This document shows, one piece after another, positions 22,765 through 31,737 of a stretch of DNA of 64,000 nt. Numbering within the stretch: the stretch's first letter is position 1; each line of letters starts with the position of its first letter. The translations under genes and the position numbers were made by a program. The notes beneath the pieces are model-generated. The model saw only the letters and a program-made list of their open reading frames with translations. It ran no database searches and had not been told where the DNA came from. This DNA comes from a virus (Duplodnaviria > Caudoviricetes): the IMG/VR virus record IMGVR_UViG_3300029705_000009; one strand, written 5' to 3'.

Positions 22765-23520
22765 TTAATTCCATGGCTTGTCCTCAGTTTTATAAGGAAA
22801 ACAAGGCATTTGCTGCATCTTGAATAAATTCCTATTATGCAAATATTCAATACGCTCCTGATGATCAACGTTTTCGATAACACCTTCACGAATGTATTTA
22901 TCTAATTCGGCATATGTAAATCCAAGATTGTCCTCGTCTGTTTTACCACAAAGACCATCGGAAGGAACTTTTTCAATTAGTTCTACCGGCAATCCTAATT
23001 CATAACCAATAGCCTTAACTTCTGTTTTAGTAAGATTTGCAAGAGGACTTACATCGCCAGCACTATCTCCGTAGCGTGTACTATATCCTACCCAATCTTC
23101 GGAAAGGTTACATGTGTTAAGAACTCTACCATTCACGCTCTGAGATACTGCGTACAAAGTAGACATACGAATACGAGGAGGTAAATTAGTTTTGGTTTGT
23201 TCTGATATTTCAAGACCAGATCTTAACAAAATAAGATTCAGCAAATCATCTACTACTTTTCCAATGTCAATTACATAATTCTTAATATCCAAAAACTCAC
23301 ATAATTTATGAGAGTACTCAATATCACTTTGAGTATTTTGTGGCATTAACACACCAATAACTCTTTCTTTCCCCAGTGCCTCTACACAAAGCGCAGCCAC
23401 TACAGAAGAATCAGTACCACCGGAAATACCAATTATAGCATTACAGTCCTGGCCATTTTCAGAGAACCAATCTCTAAGCCACTGAACTATTTCATTTTTT
23501 ACTTTCTTTGCATCAAACAT
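22765..23520 (-). CDS. nadE: NH3-dependent NAD+ synthetase
   Basis: GISGGTDSS, RIRMSTLY, GYSTRYGD, KVPSDGL, TDEDNLG; no glutaminase domain. Confidence 0.95.
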   Translation of the reverse strand: MFDAKKVKNEIVQWLRDWFSENGQDCNAIIGISGGTDSSVVAALCVEALGKERVIGVLMPQNTQSDIEYSHKLCEFLDIKNYVIDIGKVVDDLLNLILLRSGLEISEQTKTNLPPRIRMSTLYAVSQSVNGRVLNTCNLSEDWVGYSTRYGDSAGDVSPLANLTKTEVKAIGYELGLPVELIEKVPSDGLCGKTDEDNLGFTYAELDKYIREGVIENVDHQERIEYLHNRNLFKMQQMPCFPYKTEDKPWN

Positions 23521-24076
23521 ATTGTTTCTCCTTATAAAATTTCACTTCCATTAACTCGGCACGAATTTCATCATATAGCTTGTGCAATCTAGGATTAACA
23601 CATTCCATCCACTTTTCTCTTTCGTCATCAGCCATATATTTTCGCATCATAGTTGCAGAAATAGGTAGCTGTGTTCTATTGATGATTAATTCAGCAGTGT
23701 TCTTTAAGTCTTCTTTCTGAAACCATGCACTTCTACTCTCGTCGTTACCATAAATCATAATATCAGGATTTTTATGGATATATTTTTTTGCATTTTCTAA
23801 TAAATACTTACCCCATTCAGGACTGATATCATCTTCACTACTCAAATCTGCCAAACCATAAATCATGATATTAGGAGAATTACCATATACTTCTCTTAAC
23901 ATTCTAATGCGAGTTTCGATGTTTAGTGGATTTCTCTCCGTTCCAGACAACTGAGAACTTCCTACTAAAATAAGTAATCTATCGCATAACAATAATCCTG
24001 TATCAATTAACTTTTCATGTCCTTTATGCAATGTCTGGAATCTTCCGCATACAAGACCTACATCATATGGTTTCAA
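23513..24076 (-). CDS. NMN/NaMN adenylyltransferase (NadM-like)
   Basis: GRFQTLHKGH (HxGH), GSSQ...RNP, ISAT; lies between pncB and nadE. Confidence 0.85.
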   Translation of the reverse strand: MKPYDVGLVCGRFQTLHKGHEKLIDTGLLLCDRLLILVGSSQLSGTERNPLNIETRIRMLREVYGNSPNIMIYGLADLSSEDDISPEWGKYLLENAKKYIHKNPDIMIYGNDESRSAWFQKEDLKNTAELIINRTQLPISATMMRKYMADDEREKWMECVNPRLHKLYDEIRAELMEVKFYKEKQYV

Positions 24077-25275
24077 TTATTCATCCTCCAATTAATACAT
24101 CTCTGCAAATAATCAACATACTCAGGATTCTTGCACATACCTTTTCCTGGTGTATCAGATATTTTCGCTACGTCTTGACCATTGCATTTTGTTACTTTCA
24201 TAACAATATTGAGAGGTGAAACACATGTATCATTAGATAGATATGTACCAATTCCAAATGCAACTTTTGCTCTACCATTAAAATATCTGAACAACTCATC
24301 AGCCTTTTTAAAATCAAGACTATCGCTAAAAAGTAGTGTTTTACTCATAGGGTTAATTCCAAGAGATTTATAATGTTCAATCATCTTGTCTCCCCACTCC
24401 TTAGGATCGCCACTGTCATGACGTACACCGCTAAACAATGTTGCATATGTAAGTTGAAAATCTTTTAAAAAACAATCCGTTGTGATGGTATCAGTTAATG
24501 CAGTTCCGTTTAATATACCGTATTCTTTTACCCACGCTTCTAATGAATACCAATTTGAATACGCCGGATTATGTTTATGATTACCTTGTCCAACGCACAT
24601 AATCCATTCGTGAGCCATCGTTCCTACAGGAGTAATGCCGTACTTCTTTGCAAGGTATACATTAGATGTGCCAACAAATGTAGATGCACAGTATTTTGCT
24701 TCGGAAAGTCTCTTTACGGCAAGTTCCTGAGCCTCAGAAGAAAGACGGCGTCTAAGTCCAAACTCACTAAATGCAGGCAAATACATTTTCCCACTTTCAA
24801 TCCAGCCTATTTTTTCTTCAAGTTTCTCCTTAAAACTGTCAATGAGTCTGTTATAATCGTGTGCCATACGGAAATATACTTCATTCACAATGGCAAGTAC
24901 CGGAATTTCATACATAGATGTATTTAGCCAAGTACCTTCAGTCTCAATAGATAATCCACAATTCCCATCTGTTGTAATGGTAAAATCTTCAAATCTAGGA
25001 TGCCACAATCTCAAAAAATCAACATAACTTTCCTTAATCCATTTAATAGATTTCAAATATTCAAGTTCGTCTTCTGCAAAACGAATCTTACAATACTCGG
25101 CAATTTGTTCTTTAATTTCTTCTACCATCTCATTTGTAAAGTGAACATCTTTATTTCTACATTTAAATGTCCAAGTGGTTTTGTAATCAGAGAACTGGTG
25201 AAAAATAGCTTGTCCCATACTAAATTTATACATATCATTTGAAAGCAAGCTTGTGACAATCTGTGTTAAGTTCAT
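24073..25275 (-). CDS. pncB: Nicotinate phosphoribosyltransferase
   Basis: DMYKFSM, EFGLRRR, GTSNV, GTMAHEW, RHDSGDP, FSDSLD, FGIGT, KISDTPGK. Confidence 0.95.
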   Translation of the reverse strand: MNLTQIVTSLLSNDMYKFSMGQAIFHQFSDYKTTWTFKCRNKDVHFTNEMVEEIKEQIAEYCKIRFAEDELEYLKSIKWIKESYVDFLRLWHPRFEDFTITTDGNCGLSIETEGTWLNTSMYEIPVLAIVNEVYFRMAHDYNRLIDSFKEKLEEKIGWIESGKMYLPAFSEFGLRRRLSSEAQELAVKRLSEAKYCASTFVGTSNVYLAKKYGITPVGTMAHEWIMCVGQGNHKHNPAYSNWYSLEAWVKEYGILNGTALTDTITTDCFLKDFQLTYATLFSGVRHDSGDPKEWGDKMIEHYKSLGINPMSKTLLFSDSLDFKKADELFRYFNGRAKVAFGIGTYLSNDTCVSPLNIVMKVTKCNGQDVAKISDTPGKGMCKNPEYVDYLQRCINWRMNN

Positions 25276-25291
25276 AACTAAATTTCTCCTT

Positions 25292-25813
25292 TTATTTATT
25301 TCTCAGCAATTCAAATGCTGCTGTCTCTCCGTGAGACATACACATTTCAAAAAACTCATCTAAAAATGCCAAATCGTTTTCATGCATCGCAATAGGTTTT
25401 GCTTTCTTGTTTTGCCACCATTCATATTCTTTTTCAATAGTAAATGTTTTACCGTAATAAGCACGACCAGCACCTATATAGTCGCAAATCATCTCTTTTT
25501 TATACTTCATAGGTATTTCAAGAGCAATTCCTCCCTGGTCAAAGCAATCCTGCCAGTACTCATAGTGGTGTTTATTGCGCCCCTTGTGGTGCATCCATGC
25601 TTTAGAGTATCCATTAACTTTCTTAGCAACATCAATTGGACTACTTGTTCCCTGGTAGTATTTCACACTCTCAAAGAATTCTACTGGAGAGAATTTAGAC
25701 ATATCATGAAGTAATCCTTGTAAAGGGATACGAGCTTTTACACAGTATCGAAATACCCAATACTTATGTTTGCATACTTTCTTAAAATGTTTGAAAAAAT
25801 TAACTATATACAT
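25292..25813 (-). CDS. HD-like metal-binding protein (DUF5662-like)
   Basis: HK..V, LLHDMSKF, HHKGRNKHHYEYW, EMICD. Confidence 0.7.
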   Translation of the reverse strand: MYIVNFFKHFKKVCKHKYWVFRYCVKARIPLQGLLHDMSKFSPVEFFESVKYYQGTSSPIDVAKKVNGYSKAWMHHKGRNKHHYEYWQDCFDQGGIALEIPMKYKKEMICDYIGAGRAYYGKTFTIEKEYEWWQNKKAKPIAMHENDLAFLDEFFEMCMSHGETAAFELLRNK

Positions 25814-25823
25814 TCCTTGATCC

Positions 25824-26402
25824 TTACTCGTTAATCACATTAATCTGACAACTTTTCATTACTTCAAGTGCTGCCCTATGCTTCTCAGGTGTGACGCCGG
25901 CACAACAACTTGCGTCTACTGTAATAACTTTATCTGGCATTTCCTGTCTTGCCATAAGCACATTAGAAATCACACAGATGTCGGTACAAAGGCCAGCGAA
26001 CTCAATTTCGTCAATTTCATCCTTATGCTTTACAAAGAAATCTCTTAAATCATCAGAACCAAATGTATTTTTATAAATTCGACTATGCTTAATTGTCTTA
26101 GAGGAATATGTCAAAGCACCTTCCCTATTATCAACTACACTTGAAATCTCCTTATTAATGCTCCAACCAGGAGTATTCTCAATACAATGTTTAACTGGCA
26201 GCATCTTGCCTTCAAATGTGTCAAGATAATCATCATAGTGTGTGTCCTTAGTAAATAGAACTAATGTGTCTGTCATATCAATATTATTCAGTTTTTCTAC
26301 TACTCTAGGTACAATTGCCTGAGCCTCCGGACTTCCCAAACTTCCATCAATAAAATCATTTTGCATATCAACAATAACAAGTGTATTCATTATTTTATTC
26401 AC
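25824..26402 (-). CDS. pncA: Nicotinamidase (isochorismatase family)
   Basis: VDMQNDF, DTH, HC, K.TFGS, GLCTDICV catalytic set; adjacent to pncB. Confidence 0.88.
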   Translation of the reverse strand: MNKIMNTLVIVDMQNDFIDGSLGSPEAQAIVPRVVEKLNNIDMTDTLVLFTKDTHYDDYLDTFEGKMLPVKHCIENTPGWSINKEISSVVDNREGALTYSSKTIKHSRIYKNTFGSDDLRDFFVKHKDEIDEIEFAGLCTDICVISNVLMARQEMPDKVITVDASCCAGVTPEKHRAALEVMKSCQINVINE

Positions 26403-26422: not shown

Positions 26423-27016
26423 TTACTTTCTTAACCATTCCTTAAACTTGCTATAAGTCCCAAATTTTTCTTTCCAATTTGATACAATTTCAGTCGGATT
26501 GAGATCAAACTTCTTACAAACATATGTAATATATTCATTCTCATACAGTTTTTTTCTTCTCTTATTTAATGCCTTAACTTCTGCAAATACTTCAGCTCTT
26601 GAAACACCGTATTCTTTTAATAAATAAGCACTAAGATCATACTCTGAGTATTCAATAAACTGGCATATCGGACATACGCATTCAGGAACTCCGTAATATC
26701 CACTCTCACTACAGAAGTTATCCCATAAATCATCTTCTTCCATAATAAGCAATTCATCCTCTGTATAGTCTCTACTATCTCTGAGTTCTGAATCCCATGC
26801 GTCCTTATTCCACTCGTTCTCTAAAATCATTTTAATTAAATCTTTCTTTGATGGTCTTTCTAACGCTTCATCACAACAGAAGGTATGTCCATTTACACAC
26901 TCCATCATTTCTGCTTCAGACAAACACATGTCCCATCCGCTTTCAGTACGTCCGCAAATCTCGCAAACATAACTTGAACTACTACTATTTGTTACAAAAT
27001 CCTTTCTAAACTTCAT
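26423..27016 (-). CDS. TNSSSSS-leader protein 6 (Cys-rich)
   Basis: MKFRKDFVTNSSSSSY N-terminus; CxxC motifs. Confidence 0.85.
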   Translation of the reverse strand: MKFRKDFVTNSSSSSYVCEICGRTESGWDMCLSEAEMMECVNGHTFCCDEALERPSKKDLIKMILENEWNKDAWDSELRDSRDYTEDELLIMEEDDLWDNFCSESGYYGVPECVCPICQFIEYSEYDLSAYLLKEYGVSRAEVFAEVKALNKRRKKLYENEYITYVCKKFDLNPTEIVSNWKEKFGTYSKFKEWLRK

Positions 27017-27020
27017 TTAA

Positions 27021-27422
27021 TCATCCATTCCTTCCTTCACCTTCTGCAACTTCAATATTATCAAAACCATTTTCTACTGTAACATCATCAATTGCATCGT
27101 TCATACTAAAGTCATAATAAAAAACATCTTCTTCTGTTTCATCATCCCAATCAGCATCCAGCCAGTCTTCAATAATGATATATTTATTATTAGGATGTGC
27201 TTCTAGGATTTTATCAACTCCCCAAATTGTTGCTCCAGCCCAATCTGCTCCTAGATCACCCCAACGCATTTCTTTTTTTACGCCATCTTTATCAAATACA
27301 TTTGAATTTAGATTGTGCTTTTCTATAATTTTATTGGCTTTTTCTTCATCAACAATTCTTGCAAAGCAAATAATATATGACGAACTACTACTATTTGTAA
27401 CAAAGTCTGTTCTTATCTTCAT
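27021..27422 (-). CDS. TNSSSSS-leader protein 5
   Basis: MKIRTDFVTNSSSSSY. Confidence 0.85.
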   Translation of the reverse strand: MKIRTDFVTNSSSSSYIICFARIVDEEKANKIIEKHNLNSNVFDKDGVKKEMRWGDLGADWAGATIWGVDKILEAHPNNKYIIIEDWLDADWDDETEEDVFYYDFSMNDAIDDVTVENGFDNIEVAEGEGRNG

Positions 27423-27854
27423 TTAATCGTCCTCCAAGATAACGAAATTTTCTTTGTCTTCTGCTAATTCACGAAGCATATTTACACAATATGTGTCATT
27501 ATAATCAACAGACTTTCTCAATATATTAAATCCTTTCTCTAAATGCTCGATTGATCTATTGTATATGTTTGTCAAATAACTATCATCTTTAAGAATACTT
27601 TCTACAGTCTGATATCTACCCCAACCATAATATGATACAAAATCCTCATCATATTCTTCTTTAGTTCTTGATACCTCACCTGCCGTTGTATCGTATTCTC
27701 CCTCTGTAAACAGAGCCTTTTCAATCAACTTCCCATAATTCTTTAAGAACGGATACTTTACTAAAGTCTCTTCGTCAATTTCTGGAAGAGTTTTATATGC
27801 AATAATATAGCTGCTACTACTCGAATTTGTTACATAGTCACTTCTAATCTTCAT
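27423..27854 (-). CDS. TNSSSSS-leader protein 4
   Basis: MKIRSDYVTNSSSSSY. Confidence 0.85.
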   Translation of the reverse strand: MKIRSDYVTNSSSSSYIIAYKTLPEIDEETLVKYPFLKNYGKLIEKALFTEGEYDTTAGEVSRTKEEYDEDFVSYYGWGRYQTVESILKDDSYLTNIYNRSIEHLEKGFNILRKSVDYNDTYCVNMLRELAEDKENFVILEDD

Positions 27855-27865
27855 CTCAAGAACTC

Positions 27866-28177
27866 CTAATAATGGTAATCAAATTTGGGTGATATATCGT
27901 TTCTGTCAAAATCCCAGAGAATATCATCAATCCTATCGTCATACATTGCTTCATCTCTTCTTACCCAAATGTGCATTTCGTCATCGTCTTTGTTGTAATC
28001 AACCAAATAATAAACATCATCCACATCACAAGATACACACATGTTTAATAGCTCATCATGATCAACGTGTGTAAAATTATTCTCAATATACTCTGCATTT
28101 TCCTTACCAATATCTTTTTTACAAACAACAAAGCTACTACTTGAACTATTGGTTACATAATCGCTTCTAATCTTCAT
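27866..28177 (-). CDS. TNSSSSS-leader protein 3
   Basis: MKIRSDYVTNSSSSSF. Confidence 0.85.
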   Translation of the reverse strand: MKIRSDYVTNSSSSSFVVCKKDIGKENAEYIENNFTHVDHDELLNMCVSCDVDDVYYLVDYNKDDDEMHIWVRRDEAMYDDRIDDILWDFDRNDISPKFDYHY

Positions 28178-28511
28178 TTAATAATTTCCTCCAATCTGAA
28201 CCGTTATAAATGGATTTATCATTTTCTTCTTGTAGACTGAATGGATATTCGCTCCAACTTATATTTCTGCTATTTACTTCAATCTTTTCCAAGAAAGTAT
28301 CCATATCAAAATTATCCATCCATGTATATCCGGTTATATAGTTTTCATTCTCGTCAATATCCCAGGTTTCATCACAGCAATCAAGTCCTAATTTTTCTCC
28401 TAACTTCCCATGTTCTCTAATAGCTAATAATTGGTCATAGTCAAGATATTTCTTAGAAATAATAAAACTACTACTACTCGAATTTGTTACATAATCAGAA
28501 CGTATTTTCAT
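28167..28511 (-). CDS. TNSSSSS-leader protein 2 (start reassigned to ATG 28511)
   Basis: MKIRSDYVTNSSSSSF begins at 28511, right after the upstream stop codon. Confidence 0.85.
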   Translation of the reverse strand: MKIRSDYVTNSSSSSFIISKKYLDYDQLLAIREHGKLGEKLGLDCCDETWDIDENENYITGYTWMDNFDMDTFLEKIEVNSRNISWSEYPFSLQEENDKSIYNGSDWRKLLNED

Positions 28512-28512
28512 T

Positions 28513-28851
28513 TTATCCCACCTTAAAATTTTCTGTAACAATGTTATATCCACAGTCATACATAAAAGCTCCAAATTCATCATCTTCACTAGAATATTCA
28601 ACTGCTGATACAGTCCAATCTCCGAGTTGCATATCTTTTGGCTTTCTAAATAACTTCCTGGATAAATCTTCTATGAATATTTCCACTGATTCATCGTCAG
28701 AATTTAAATCAAACATGTCCAAGTTATATTCAATATCTTTTTTATATTCTTTTAATTTATTTCTTATTTCATCAATAGTACAATTCTCTCTTTTGGCGAT
28801 GATAAAACTGCTACTAGATGAATTAGTCACAAAATCTTTCCTTACTTTCAT
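28513..28851 (-). CDS. TNSSSSS-leader protein 1
   Basis: MKVRKDFVTNSSSSSF; overlaps the end of the radical SAM gene. Confidence 0.85.
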   Translation of the reverse strand: MKVRKDFVTNSSSSSFIIAKRENCTIDEIRNKLKEYKKDIEYNLDMFDLNSDDESVEIFIEDLSRKLFRKPKDMQLGDWTVSAVEYSSEDDEFGAFMYDCGYNIVTENFKVG

Positions 28852-29923
28852 ATAAGTCCTTCTCCTCTTTGTTGCATAAAACGATCTGTCTCCGAATTGG
28901 GCAACCGCCTCTACATTCTAACTGTCTACTACAACCTTTACATGAGTTTCTAAAATGATCGCGAAAATCCTCAAATTGTTTACTATTCCACGCATTTTGT
29001 ACTGTATCATTTGAAATGTCATATGCCCATCTCATATCCTGATTATCAAAGCTACAAGGTAACATCTTCATATCAGAAGTAATATATGCGGACCATCTTC
29101 CACCCTCACATGTATCAAAACTATCCTCGTTGATATTAGAAGTTATATTAATAAGCGCCGGAACTGTACAAGAATCGAAACCAATTTTAAAATCAAATTG
29201 GCAAGTGTCAATAATATTAAAGAATTCTTTTACTCTATCATCATTGATGTCCAATACATTATTTTCCTGACCCAAACCAACAGGTTTATGTAATAAGAAA
29301 ATTATTGCGTTAATGCCTTTGGGGAAATCGTTGCTTCTTAATCTTGTAATAGCCTCGTCAATGGAATTATTTCCTAATACATAGTGGATATTTGTCTTAA
29401 CTCCTGCATCTAACAACATCTGAATTGCTCTATATGTGTGTTCCTGGCGATACCAACTGATTGCAACTGCTCCGCATAATTCCTTACAAAGTGCTACAAT
29501 CTCATCTGTGAAACCTAATCCGGAAGATGTGAAATTTGGCACAATGCCATTTTCTCTACAGTATCTAAGGATTTTTTCAAAATCTTCATGTTGGTCTACA
29601 TCACCTCTGCCACCCAATGCGAACTGAAATGTCTTGCCTTTACATTCATCTACAATTCTCTTGAAGTTTTCAAAAGACATATTAGGAAATTTAGTCTTCA
29701 ATCCATTCTGATAACACTGAACGCCTGATTTAATACACAATCCACTAGATCCATGAACGCAATGCCCCATAATTCCAATATCAAGTAATTCAGGATAACT
29801 AGTCATAAAGGGATCTACACCTGTGTCTTTTCCGTTCTCAATAACTCCACTTCTCATATAGAACCCTGTATTGGGATTAAACACAGATACAAATTTGTTT
29901 TTCTTATCAATTTTCTTAATCAT
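28823..29923 (-). CDS. Radical SAM enzyme with SPASM domain
   Basis: Cys motif C.HG..GLC......CYQ (expanded), GG.GD; C-terminal CEGG...PCSF...C..C....CRGGCP. Confidence 0.9.
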   Translation of the reverse strand: MIKKIDKKNKFVSVFNPNTGFYMRSGVIENGKDTGVDPFMTSYPELLDIGIMGHCVHGSSGLCIKSGVQCYQNGLKTKFPNMSFENFKRIVDECKGKTFQFALGGRGDVDQHEDFEKILRYCRENGIVPNFTSSGLGFTDEIVALCKELCGAVAISWYRQEHTYRAIQMLLDAGVKTNIHYVLGNNSIDEAITRLRSNDFPKGINAIIFLLHKPVGLGQENNVLDINDDRVKEFFNIIDTCQFDFKIGFDSCTVPALINITSNINEDSFDTCEGGRWSAYITSDMKMLPCSFDNQDMRWAYDISNDTVQNAWNSKQFEDFRDHFRNSCKGCSRQLECRGGCPIRRQIVLCNKEEKDLYESKERFCD

Positions 29924-30605
29924 TTTCTTTCTCCAGCTTATTCCAATTATACCAACCGTAAATACAGTTAATAGTCCATGCTATGTACATTGCAACCATC
30001 GACCAATTGCCAGCTACAAACCACATCTTTATACAAATAACATCTATTACAAGCCACCAAATCCACTGTTCTCTATATCTCTTAACCATTAAAATCTGAG
30101 CAAAAATTGCTAGTACATTAGTAGCAGCATCTGTATATGCTTGATGACTTCCGATTGTAGTTAGCCAATATCCCATGCCCAAAGTACAAATTCCTGTGCC
30201 AACAATTGAAGCAATCCACTTTAAAGGCGTAAACTTCAAAGCATCTACATGTGCTGATCCATCTTCATCTACGGTTGAATTGTTTTTCCATACAAAGATT
30301 CCCCAAATCATAGTCACAAGGTAGAATATGTTCTCCAATACTTCACCATAAAAACAATTCTGCCAAGACAAAATCAAATAACTTATGGTTTGTATAAAAC
30401 CAATAAAGTAAAATGAAATCTTACCTTTCGCACACAATACAACAGAAATAACTCCGCTAATTCCTGCAATAATTCCTAGTAACGAATCTGGTGCAATACA
30501 GAAGACAACTATCTGTACCAATAACATTGTAATCATAAACATTCGATCAAAAATCGAATAACCATTCAGAAACTCTCTATTTAGCATATTTGTAATTTTA
30601 TTCAC
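29916..30605 (-). CDS. pnuC: Nicotinamide riboside transporter
   Basis: Multi-pass membrane protein; DA...LAIFAQILM.KRYREQWIWW..D; adjacent to nadR. Confidence 0.88.
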   Translation of the reverse strand: MNKITNMLNREFLNGYSIFDRMFMITMLLVQIVVFCIAPDSLLGIIAGISGVISVVLCAKGKISFYFIGFIQTISYLILSWQNCFYGEVLENIFYLVTMIWGIFVWKNNSTVDEDGSAHVDALKFTPLKWIASIVGTGICTLGMGYWLTTIGSHQAYTDAATNVLAIFAQILMVKRYREQWIWWLVIDVICIKMWFVAGNWSMVAMYIAWTINCIYGWYNWNKLEKEND

Positions 30606-31737
30606 CTATTAGTACCTCTTTTTCCACATATTCTTTTACTGCAATAAAGTTTTCATAATAATTTCCATCGAGAATAGTAACCTTACCCCAATCACCAACT
30701 TCAATGAGACTCTGTTTCAGAATACCAAACAACTCTTGTCTTTCTTTCATACCGGAATGAGCCATAAATCTCGAATGATCATCAACAAAAATACCATGAG
30801 GAACAACAAGAAAAATCTTATCCCATCTACTCTTCTTTGCATATTCGTAAGCTACAGGTTTGATTTTTTCGTTGTACTCTTCTTCTTTCAAAATGCAGCT
30901 AGGATCTTTTGAATAATATTGAGAATACATATTAGTAACTAAACTATCCGTATCAGCAAAGAATATTCCATGGTTGCCTGGCGAGTTAATACACTCTTTA
31001 TTGTGATTATACTGACCTTCAAGAAACGCAAGAAAGTCTGCACAATCAAGTTCCCAGTCGCTAACGCAACTTTCAACCATGTAATCTCTAGCCCACTCAT
31101 GACTGTGCGGAGCGTTGAAATACTTACCTAAGTCTGTAACCAATGTAGACTTTCCCTCACTTGCAGTTCCGGTAATAAGAATGTTGGTGCTGAAAATTCT
31201 CTTGAAAGGAAGAGTAATTTTATCCCAATGCTTAACAGGATTCTGTCTAATCATTGTTGCGGATATAGGATTGTCAGATGTTCTATCAACAAGTACTGCT
31301 TTTTCGTGCCACATGTTGATGAGATCGTCATAATATGTCTGGTCTCCTACATACCAGGTTCTATCCATCGTTCCCATTGTAGGTACTTCCACTTTTGGAT
31401 ATTCAACGGCCTTTTTGTATATTTTCTCAAACTCGTTCATCCAACCAATCCAACCATTAGGATATCTATCAAGTCCAATTTCTGTATCATTAATCGCATA
31501 AACAGCAACTAAATCGTCATCTGCAAAAAACTCACGAACATAACGATATCTCTTTCTGTGTGGCATTAACGGCTCACCTTTGTCTCCGTCATATCCACAA
31601 ACAATTACTAATGCTCCTCCAGAGTTTTCTTTCTTTGCTCTCATTATCAAATCCAAATGACCCTGATGTAATGGTGCGAATGAGCCGAATACAATTCCAA
31701 TATTACCTTTTAATGGCTTTTGATAGGCGTGTAACAT
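30598..31737 (-). CDS. nadR: NadR-type bifunctional NMN adenylyltransferase / ribosylnicotinamide kinase (no HTH)
   Basis: FGSFAPLHQGH, ISATMIR, GTASEGKST, EWARDY, DTD. Confidence 0.88.
   Translation of the reverse strand: MLHAYQKPLKGNIGIVFGSFAPLHQGHLDLIMRAKKENSGGALVIVCGYDGDKGEPLMPHRKRYRYVREFFADDDLVAVYAINDTEIGLDRYPNGWIGWMNEFEKIYKKAVEYPKVEVPTMGTMDRTWYVGDQTYYDDLINMWHEKAVLVDRTSDNPISATMIRQNPVKHWDKITLPFKRIFSTNILITGTASEGKSTLVTDLGKYFNAPHSHEWARDYMVESCVSDWELDCADFLAFLEGQYNHNKECINSPGNHGIFFADTDSLVTNMYSQYYSKDPSCILKEEEYNEKIKPVAYEYAKKSRWDKIFLVVPHGIFVDDHSRFMAHSGMKERQELFGILKQSLIEVGDWGKVTILDGNYYENFIAVKEYVEKEVLIGE

Follow-up and report, generated by a model that had tools for sequence, protein, structure and literature searches.

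A radical SAM/SPASM enzyme linked to a short N-terminal tag on otherwise unrelated phage and bacterial proteins

Introduction

Why should six neighbouring phage proteins with unrelated bodies begin with nearly the same 16 residues, and why should they be encoded directly behind a radical S-adenosylmethionine (SAM) enzyme? This question is raised by a 64,000-nucleotide stretch of DNA, here called the window, from a virus of the Caudoviricetes (IMG/VR record IMGVR_UViG_3300029705_000009). Seven nearly gapless genes on one strand, the enzyme gene first and the last ending at position 26423, encode a radical SAM/SPASM enzyme and six proteins, here called clients t1 to t6, that share the N-terminal tag MK[VIF]R[KST]D[FY]VTNSSSSS[FY]. 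An earlier interpretation of this DNA, made from the letters and their open reading frames (ORFs) alone (the sequence-only reading), had proposed that the enzyme is a maturase with many clients, which modifies the NSSSSS stretch of the tag. It had offered as an alternative that the tag is the first strand of a shared known fold.

We conclude, with a probability of about 0.6, that these genes form a mobile cassette in which one SPASM enzyme recognizes, and probably modifies, tagged clients that are otherwise unrelated. The parts of this conclusion differ in strength. It is very likely that the enzyme and the tag are direct binding partners, and a probable consequence, on analogy with related enzymes, is that the tag becomes covalently modified, with Asn10-Ser13 as the likeliest site. 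Beyond the sequence-only reading, the present analysis adds the covariation of tag residue 6 with enzyme residue 176; it also identifies t4 as the universal core partner and narrows the site to Asn10-Ser13.

Results

The tag is well defined within the window. An alignment of the six clients shows M1, K2, R4, D6, V8, T9, N10 and S11-S15 to be invariant, with an overall identity to the first client of only 25-37%, and a six-frame scan of the whole 64 kb found the motif six times, each time at the start of one client. The serine codons of the tag alternate between TCN and AGY from copy to copy, so the conservation of the tag acts at the protein level. Apart from the overlap between the enzyme gene and t1 (Table 1), adjacent cassette genes overlap by at most 11 nt and lie at most 11 nt apart; for t2, the ORF listing also allows a longer version that starts with TTG upstream of the ATG at 28511. 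The window has a G+C content of ~33%, and all of its ORFs of at least 150 aa lie on the minus strand. The close packing of six ORFs with a near-invariant N-terminus, the synonymous serine codons and the overlap of the radical SAM gene with the first tagged ORF had all been described in the sequence-only reading, and coordinates, alignment and scan bear that description out.

If the tag and the enzyme belong together, they should also be found together elsewhere, and this is the case in both directions. All 16 IMG/VR loci that were found through the enzyme (60-94% identity) carry two to five tagged ORFs, mostly directly downstream. Conversely, 77 viral loci were found through the tag, and the enzyme lies within 8 kb in 53 of them; 17 of the remaining 24 represent one remote tagged-gene pair of a single phage lineage, in which the enzyme is encoded ~23 kb away on the same contigs (Table 1). 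Two records are at least 90% complete (416 kb and 504 kb); each has the enzyme gene more than 100 kb away, again flanked by tags, and so does one fragment. Apart from the enzyme and the tagged genes, which accompany each other, no gene family is conserved in the phage surroundings; no conserved protease, exporter or protein of the RRE type (RRE, the recognition element for peptides that are made on ribosomes and modified after translation, RiPPs) was found in the viral neighbourhoods. In species-representative bacterial and archaeal genomes, the enzyme is present at 75 of 80 tag loci and at all 26 that have full flanks. Thus, the co-occurrence of the motif with this radical SAM clade, a point that the sequence-only reading had singled out, holds whether one starts from the enzyme or from the tag. 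A blastn comparison of the cassette with 50,697 phage records gave no match.

The bacterial loci, mostly from Lachnospiraceae and other gut or rumen anaerobes, have the simplest arrangement. Forty-five of them are a minimal module, with one tagged protein of ~125 aa encoded directly upstream of the enzyme, and 28 of the 45 also have a gene of ~114 aa, which is of the XRE type where inspected. In a quick tree search, the enzymes of these minimal modules form one clade (Shimodaira-Hasegawa-like approximate likelihood ratio test, SH-aLRT, 93). Three modules that were inspected (L108:8001-9470, L149:8001-9470 and L104:8001-9460) have defence-type neighbours, namely a type I-E Cse1, a MamI restriction-modification pair, and Phd/ParE and nucleotidyltransferase/HEPN pairs.

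These loci bear on the possibility that the tag is a signal for another machine, such as capsid packaging, secretion or degradation, and that the radical SAM gene is merely a frequent neighbour. A short fixed N-terminus on the variable small proteins of phage arrays does resemble known targeting peptides, and some tag clusters are separated from the enzyme gene by 23 kb to more than 100 kb. However, bacterial chromosomes contain the two-gene module of tag and enzyme without phage structural genes in its vicinity, and the enzyme is present in both of the records that are at least 90% complete. In addition, the tag, as we read it, lacks the hydrophobic core typical of signal peptides, and its residue 6 covaries with a residue of the enzyme (see below). 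We therefore consider such a signal very improbable.

Which part of the tag is under the strictest constraint? A scan with a position-specific scoring matrix that did not presuppose the run of serines yielded 206 unique 18-mer tags. Among them, N10 is conserved in 206, S11 and S12 in 205 each and S13 in 203, followed by K2 (203), T9 (202, with Ala tolerated) and R4 (195, plus nine with Lys). F or Y invariably occupies position 7 and V or I position 8, while S14 and S15 tolerate T, A or C. In this sample the strict core of the tag is Asn10-Ser13. The tag has remained nearly unchanged while the enzyme has diverged to 38% identity. When 1.84 billion representatives were searched with a 30-column profile of the tag, 21,188 clusters (50% identity) matched at E <= 0.001; of the best 150 matches, 146 have the tag starting at their first residue.

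An indication of contact between the two partners comes from tag residue 6. This residue is uniform inside each of the first 136 loci, being Asp throughout in 123, Gly throughout in 11 and Ser throughout in two. Gly6 is shared in the Gly lineage by five paralogues whose body families differ, including the remote pair; orthologues of these clients elsewhere, including the families of window clients t1, t2 and t5, carry Asp6. The enzyme residue that follows this change is window residue 176, in the context AGV-K-TNIH. All 96 Asp-class enzymes have K or R there, the 10 Gly-class enzymes have T without exception, and the two of the Ser class have T or I. The Gly-class enzymes are one clade, and the two Ser-class enzymes fall basally, without a resolved position, among those of the Asp class.

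A scan of DNA patterns for tags without Asp6 then provided new lineages in which the prediction for residue 176 could be tested, and it held: the enzyme has T in L189 (Gly) and in L211 (three Gly and one Asp), and K in L234 (seven Asp and one Gly). Among the new lineages, however, L188/L199 and L191, with Ser6, keep K. For a formal test, the enzymes were collapsed at 85% identity to 80 clusters, and ~360 columns were compared. Column 176 is basic in 74 of 74 Asp6 clusters vs one of six Gly/Ser6 clusters (Fisher p = 2.5e-7); it is the top column, and its p-value survives correction for ~360 columns. The next-best column, K65 (window 29729-29731), is inside the cluster loop of the enzyme and is K in 53 of 74 Asp-class clusters vs none of six (p = 1e-3); it may be a second tag contact, although this value is not significant after correction. 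The pattern at residue 176 is one that a salt bridge from tag Asp6 to enzyme Lys176 would be expected to leave, and it is silent on chemistry.

In addition to its linkage with the tag, we were able to characterize the enzyme itself. It is matched as a SPASM protein by PF13186 (27.5 bits, cutoff 21.5) and TIGR04085 (27.6, cutoff 27) and by phrog_7293 (8e-28). Pfam gave no match besides SPASM and detected no RRE/PqqD domain; the window enzyme matches neither PF04055 nor the CX3CX2C spacing. Its cluster loop is stretched to C55-x7-C63-x6-C70 and follows strand 46-52 of the model described below, and it has the GGE-like motif ALGGRGD. Among 52 homologues, C55 is conserved in 100%, C70 in 98% and C63 in 62%; Y71-Q72 after the cluster cysteines and G104, G105 and G107 of ALGGxGD are invariant. 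Other lineages have the middle cysteine shifted, in the loops CxCX3CX3C and CX5CX3C, or have the loop CX7CX8C; no tag variants tracking the loop type were discernible, the tag being too invariant. PF04055 does match a few homologues and one distant homologue, L095, has a canonical CX3CX2C at the aligned place, and the family therefore derives from canonical radical SAM enzymes. Two phage homologues carry a LAGLIDADG intein directly before ALGGxGD (L068:5139-7496 and L055:2780-5113), and a GIY-YIG/NUMOD3 endonuclease ORF extends into the enzyme gene of L014.

The C-terminal region contains eight cysteines (C252, C272, C290, C328, C331, C337, C341 and C350), each conserved in at least 96% of homologues. 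The seven-cysteine SPASM motif, CX9-15GX4C ... CX2CX5CX3C ... C (PMC6231123), is matched by C272-x17-C290, C328-x2-C331-x5-C337-x3-C341 and C350, with C252 as an extra; in the first element, a nearly invariant Met285 takes the place of the glycine and the spacing is slightly longer. Both auxiliary clusters of the anaerobic sulfatase-maturating enzyme (anSME) are fully ligated by cysteine (PMC6231123), and the eight cysteines seen here are in principle enough to ligate two auxiliary [4Fe-4S] clusters fully in the same manner.

The AlphaFold2 (AF2) model of the enzyme (predicted local distance difference test, pLDDT, 92; predicted template modelling score, pTM, 0.90) comprises a partial barrel and the SPASM domain. 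Six parallel strands alternate with helices (46-52, 100-105, 128-133, 153-156, 177-183 and 206-211). Structural comparison with VIA-align placed it near SuiB (Z 26.1, root-mean-square deviation 3.5, 319 residues aligned), SkfB (Z 23.1) and anSMEcpe (Z 21.7, root-mean-square deviation 3.0, 286 aligned), and further near CteB, ChlB and PqqE, with Z values to solved radical SAM enzymes of 16-26. All of its nearest solved structures modify peptides or proteins. A sequence profile search of the PDB with the enzyme gave only marginal matches in the SPASM region (PqqE, SkfB and BtrN). The first 45 residues are three short strands, and the N-terminal peptide-binding domains of SuiB and SkfB align to ranges that include them. 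On this model the enzyme has the fold and the cluster cysteines of a radical SAM enzyme, and SAM cleavage activity is predicted.

Several known assignments were tried for the system and rejected. Membership of the anaerobic sulfatase maturases is not supported, as TIGR03942 scores 15.1 bits against a cutoff of 349.45, in the SPASM region only; the anSME substrate motif (C/S)-x-(P/A)-x-R is found in none of the six clients or 206 unique tags, and sulfatase families are absent from the conserved neighbours of the cassette loci. An RRE-dependent RiPP system does not fit either, since the clients are 35-408 aa long rather than short precursors and no conserved leader protease or exporter is encoded nearby. 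PADLOC-DB 2.0 gave no match for the window proteins, and for a bacterial enzyme only a chance-level match to viperin (E ~0.01).

The sequence-only reading had also suggested modelling the enzyme together with the tag. We predicted the complex of the enzyme with client t4, using alignments and including SAM and three clusters as ligands. The complex score was 0.35 (runs 0.49, 0.35 and 0.11), compared with 0.01 for the best control; at least 27% of the contacts agreed between runs, and the partner's pLDDT was 58 or higher. By an approximate calibration, since custom alignments and riding ligands were used here, the mark for the complex score is reached by 58 of 80 solved complexes and by two of 110 mismatched pairs, and at scores of 0.60 or below by only seven of the 80 solved complexes and by both passing mismatches.

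What, then, do the clients have in common behind the tag? Families were built with jackhmmer from residue 21 to the end, and each of the six window clients proved to be a family of its own. Comparison of the six profiles with hhalign gave probabilities of at most 2.4%, so that the bodies are without detectable relationship to each other; the pI is below 5 in 87% of 221 unique viral tagged proteins. The unrelated, mostly acidic bodies of the sequence-only reading are thus confirmed. Over all loci, 423 unique tagged proteins (35-408 aa, median 135) fall into 54 body clusters, and only one of the 54 cluster representatives has a real Pfam domain, of BspA-type leucine-rich repeats. Searches of Pfam, NCBIfam, PHROGs and PADLOC with the six clients found nothing except the N-terminal part of phrog_7397, and no tagged protein came up when the range of 624-2000 aa was searched, a negative that carries little weight.

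Two clients deserve separate description. The t4 family is the commonest client family in phages, occurring in 40 of 48 distinct viral loci, and t4 has 357 close relatives in a database of 5.8 billion proteins. The tagged family that is the single partner of the enzyme in bacteria is homologous to it (hhalign probability 96.3%, E 1.9e-9). On this homology, t4 is the phage counterpart of the enzyme's single bacterial partner, and so the universal core partner. Its AF2 model (pLDDT 89) is an alpha/beta sandwich with residues 13-20 as the first beta-strand; residues 1-10 are not placed (pLDDT <50) and, being flexible in the model, would be accessible. Foldseek found nothing in the PDB at E <= 0.001, and a wide VIA-align comparison gave a best Z of 5.1 to a generic alpha/beta sandwich, which is uninformative. 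Client t6, the best conserved of the phage clients, with a family that occurs in 27 of 48 distinct viral loci, has cysteine and histidine knuckles (C18-x2-C21, C40, H44, C47 and C115-P-x-C118), of which C18, C21, C40, C47, C115 and C118 are invariant in the family alignment. It is probably zinc-binding, and because the knuckles begin two residues after the tag, the tag would adjoin the probable zinc site.

The t4 model also bears on whether the motif might be the first strand and a ligand-binding loop (for phosphate, metal or a cofactor) of one ancient fold, with the clients as fast-evolving paralogues. Here the sequence-only alternative is partly upheld, in that residues 13-20 are indeed a first strand; a serine-rich loop associated with the first strand recalls nucleotide-binding loops, and a few proteins have an internal second tag at the start of a second module. 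However, residues 1-10 are outside the modelled fold, the bodies are unrelated and extend from zinc-knuckle to leucine-rich-repeat proteins, and no informative structural neighbour was found. A shared fold would also leave the obligatory enzyme partner and the covariation unexplained. Like the targeting signal, it fits the data poorly, and we regard it as scarcely credible.

Finally, the sequence-only reading had placed the cassette inside an NAD (nicotinamide adenine dinucleotide) operon. The flanking genes are real: NadR-like and PnuC genes lie upstream, and downstream are genes for an isochorismatase/PncA-like protein, DUF5662, NAPRTase, a cytidylyltransferase-like (NMNAT-like) protein and NAD synthase. 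They make up a redundant NAD salvage set (22765-26402 and 29916-31737) that is split in two by the tagged cassette and has the DUF5662 gene (25292-25813) embedded in it. Across 146 enzyme-bearing loci, however, this window is the only one with NadR, PnuC, NAPRTase, DUF5662 and the NMNAT-like gene beside the cassette; PncA recurs at one further locus and NadE at three. As NAD genes stand beside the cassette essentially only in this window, the NAD context is incidental, and a functional link to NAD was rejected.

Table 1. Cassette genes of the window, and remote tag clusters with the enzyme gene on the same contig
Feature	Position	Strand	Support or remarks
Radical SAM/SPASM enzyme, 366 aa	28823-29923	-	Pfam SPASM PF13186, phrog_7293, AF2 model
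Tagged client t1, 112 aa	28513-28851	-	29-nt overlap with enzyme gene; body family n = 28 unique (viral loci)
Tagged client t2, 114 aa from ATG at 28511	28167-28511	-	Body family n = 16 unique (viral loci)
Tagged client t3, 103 aa, very acidic	27866-28177	-	Small body family, n = 4 unique (viral loci)
Tagged client t4, 143 aa, alpha/beta body	27423-27854	-	Body family n = 25 unique (viral loci)
Tagged client t5, 133 aa	27021-27422	-	Body family n = 20 unique (viral loci)
Tagged client t6, 197 aa, Cys/His knuckles	26423-27016	-	Body family n = 31 unique (viral loci)
Remote tag cluster/enzyme pairs	L029/L086, L025/L087, L034/L089, L030/L065, L036/L060		Same contig

Discussion

An important question is whether the tag is what the enzyme acts upon or only where it binds. 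The tag might be a handle that plugs adaptor bodies onto the enzyme and stays unmodified itself, the bodies then bringing third-party targets (host proteins or nucleic acids) for modification, or regulating the enzyme. Genomic linkage, the covariation of Asp6 with Lys176 and the weak support from the complex prediction show contact, not chemistry, and would suit such docking. The bodies are very diverse and include one leucine-rich-repeat binder, as expected of specificity modules. Furthermore, the mini-sheet of enzyme residues 1-45 falls within the alignment range of the SuiB and SkfB domains to which a leader peptide binds as an added strand (PMC6231123), and in the model K176 is at the barrel bottom, not beside the cluster. 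Nevertheless, docking motifs are usually hydrophobic or charged, whereas the strict core of this tag is Asn-Ser-Ser-Ser, with small polar residues of the kind found at anSME-type reaction centres. Covalent modification is favoured over docking because the enzyme keeps all catalytic features, because all of its structural relatives act on the peptide that they bind, because the tag's invariant part consists of small polar residues, and because the neighbourhoods hold no third conserved component. Docking without modification is in our judgement unlikely.

We thus prefer a cassette whose enzyme recognizes and modifies the tag, and its mechanism may be envisaged as follows. On a series of otherwise unrelated clients encoded in a mobile cassette of seven genes, the enzyme would recognize MKxRxD[FY]VTNSSSSS[FY]. 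The exposed first ~10 residues of the tag would dock on the enzyme, with Asp6 against Lys176, and we infer that this contact places the tag in the active site. A radical SAM-dependent modification would then occur inside Asn10-Ser11-Ser12-Ser13, and the two fully ligated auxiliary clusters would take away the electron, as in anSME. Among candidate reactions, the simplest are the conversion of Ser to formylglycine, as by anSME, and a C-C or C-O cross-link from Phe/Tyr7 or Phe/Tyr16 to Asn10 or a Ser, similar to the products of SuiB or the darobactin pathway. Any one named chemistry is, however, at best a long shot.

Several observations weigh against this interpretation. The covariation rests on roughly four to five independent changes. 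There are Ser6 tags with K176 in L188/L199 and L191, and the loci L234, L211 and L185 are mixed at residue 6. According to the model, strand beta5 has K176 at its N-terminal end, at the bottom of the barrel and not on the cluster side. The complex prediction lends weak support to the pairing and returned no interface, so that entry of the tag into the active site is presumptive. In the t4 model, tag residues 13-20 are a core strand of the folded client, so that a site within S13-S15 would need modification before folding. A sister tag, MKxRxGFVSNSSSSSF, with Gly6 and Ser9, exists (P0242, P0244, P0245, P0248 and P0264), and rare proteins have a second, internal copy of the tag (P0241, P0243, P0245 and P0248). 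The internal copy is usually preceded by Met-Lys, and that of P0243 is without the MKxR part; the two-tag proteins look like recent fusions or read-through of adjacent tagged genes. Finally, of the maturase with many clients proposed in the sequence-only reading, it is the direct partnership that linkage, covariation and the complex prediction uphold, while the modification in the NSSSSS stretch is something that we infer.

What might such a system be for? The diversity of the small acidic phage clients and the position of bacterial loci beside defence genes suggest a role in phage-host conflict. As a tentative extension, which we hold to be possible but rather doubtful, the tag could be a portable address of ~16 residues, so that one radical enzyme installs the same modification, for example a reactive aldehyde or a cross-linked N-terminal cap, on any protein that bears it. 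Phages would use it to arm or stabilize anti-defence proteins, and bacteria would keep a one-client version in conflict islands. If this were true, the cassette would be a general, genetically encoded protein-modification system spanning more than 20,000 protein clusters and lacking any published description.

If the enzyme does modify the tag, the virome of the anaerobic gut and rumen would contain a very large post-translational system that is so far unstudied. It would define a new class of radical SAM/SPASM substrate, namely whole unrelated proteins addressed by a short N-terminal tag, and would provide a functional handle for thousands of 'dark' phage proteins. Potentially, the compact pair of enzyme and tag might also serve for site-specific protein modification. 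The Asp6-Lys176 pair offers a directly testable contact.

Relation to known systems

We found no paper that describes this system; the tag motif turned up only in unrelated eukaryotic papers, and no description of a CX7CX6C radical SAM enzyme was found. Other radical SAM/SPASM peptide systems, not including this tag, have been described (Kaur et al., 2020; PMC7159879).

Three known systems invite comparison, although none matches in full. The internal proteins of phage T4 carry capsid-targeting sequences, which work with the prohead scaffold and protease; these proteins are small and fast-evolving, and their bodies are thought to counter host defences. The resemblance lies in arrays of small proteins with a common short N-terminus and unrelated bodies. 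However, the tag studied here is present in two-gene modules of bacteria as well, and it covaries with a radical SAM enzyme.

The RiPP maturases of the SPASM type, such as SuiB and StrB (SuiB, 5V1Q-5V1T), SkfB (6EFN) and CteB (5WGG), include the best structural neighbours of the window enzyme. Here too, one enzyme may have several precursors with a conserved N-terminal recognition sequence and a variable downstream part, and the genes are tightly linked, often with translational coupling. Unlike these maturases, the window enzyme has no RRE or PqqD domain detected by Pfam, only the 45-residue N-terminal mini-sheet, and its clients would be folded proteins (median 135 aa; the fold is modelled for t4 only) and not peptides. 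In addition, the conserved part is limited to the 16-18 N-terminal residues, and the invariant residues are in what would correspond to the 'leader', not in a variable core.

A functional parallel may also be drawn with anSME/AtsB (PDB 4K36-4K39). Like the window enzyme, it is a radical SAM/SPASM protein without a separate RRE domain, and it acts on whole proteins, in which a short motif near the N-terminus supplies the target Ser or Cys; both enzymes have eight cysteines in the auxiliary-cluster region. However, the window tag is without (C/S)xPxR, and the enzyme has a CX7CX6C loop in place of CX3CX2C. Furthermore, instead of sulfatases the clients of the window system are dozens of unrelated small proteins, most of them without annotation, and the system is carried by phages and mobile islands.

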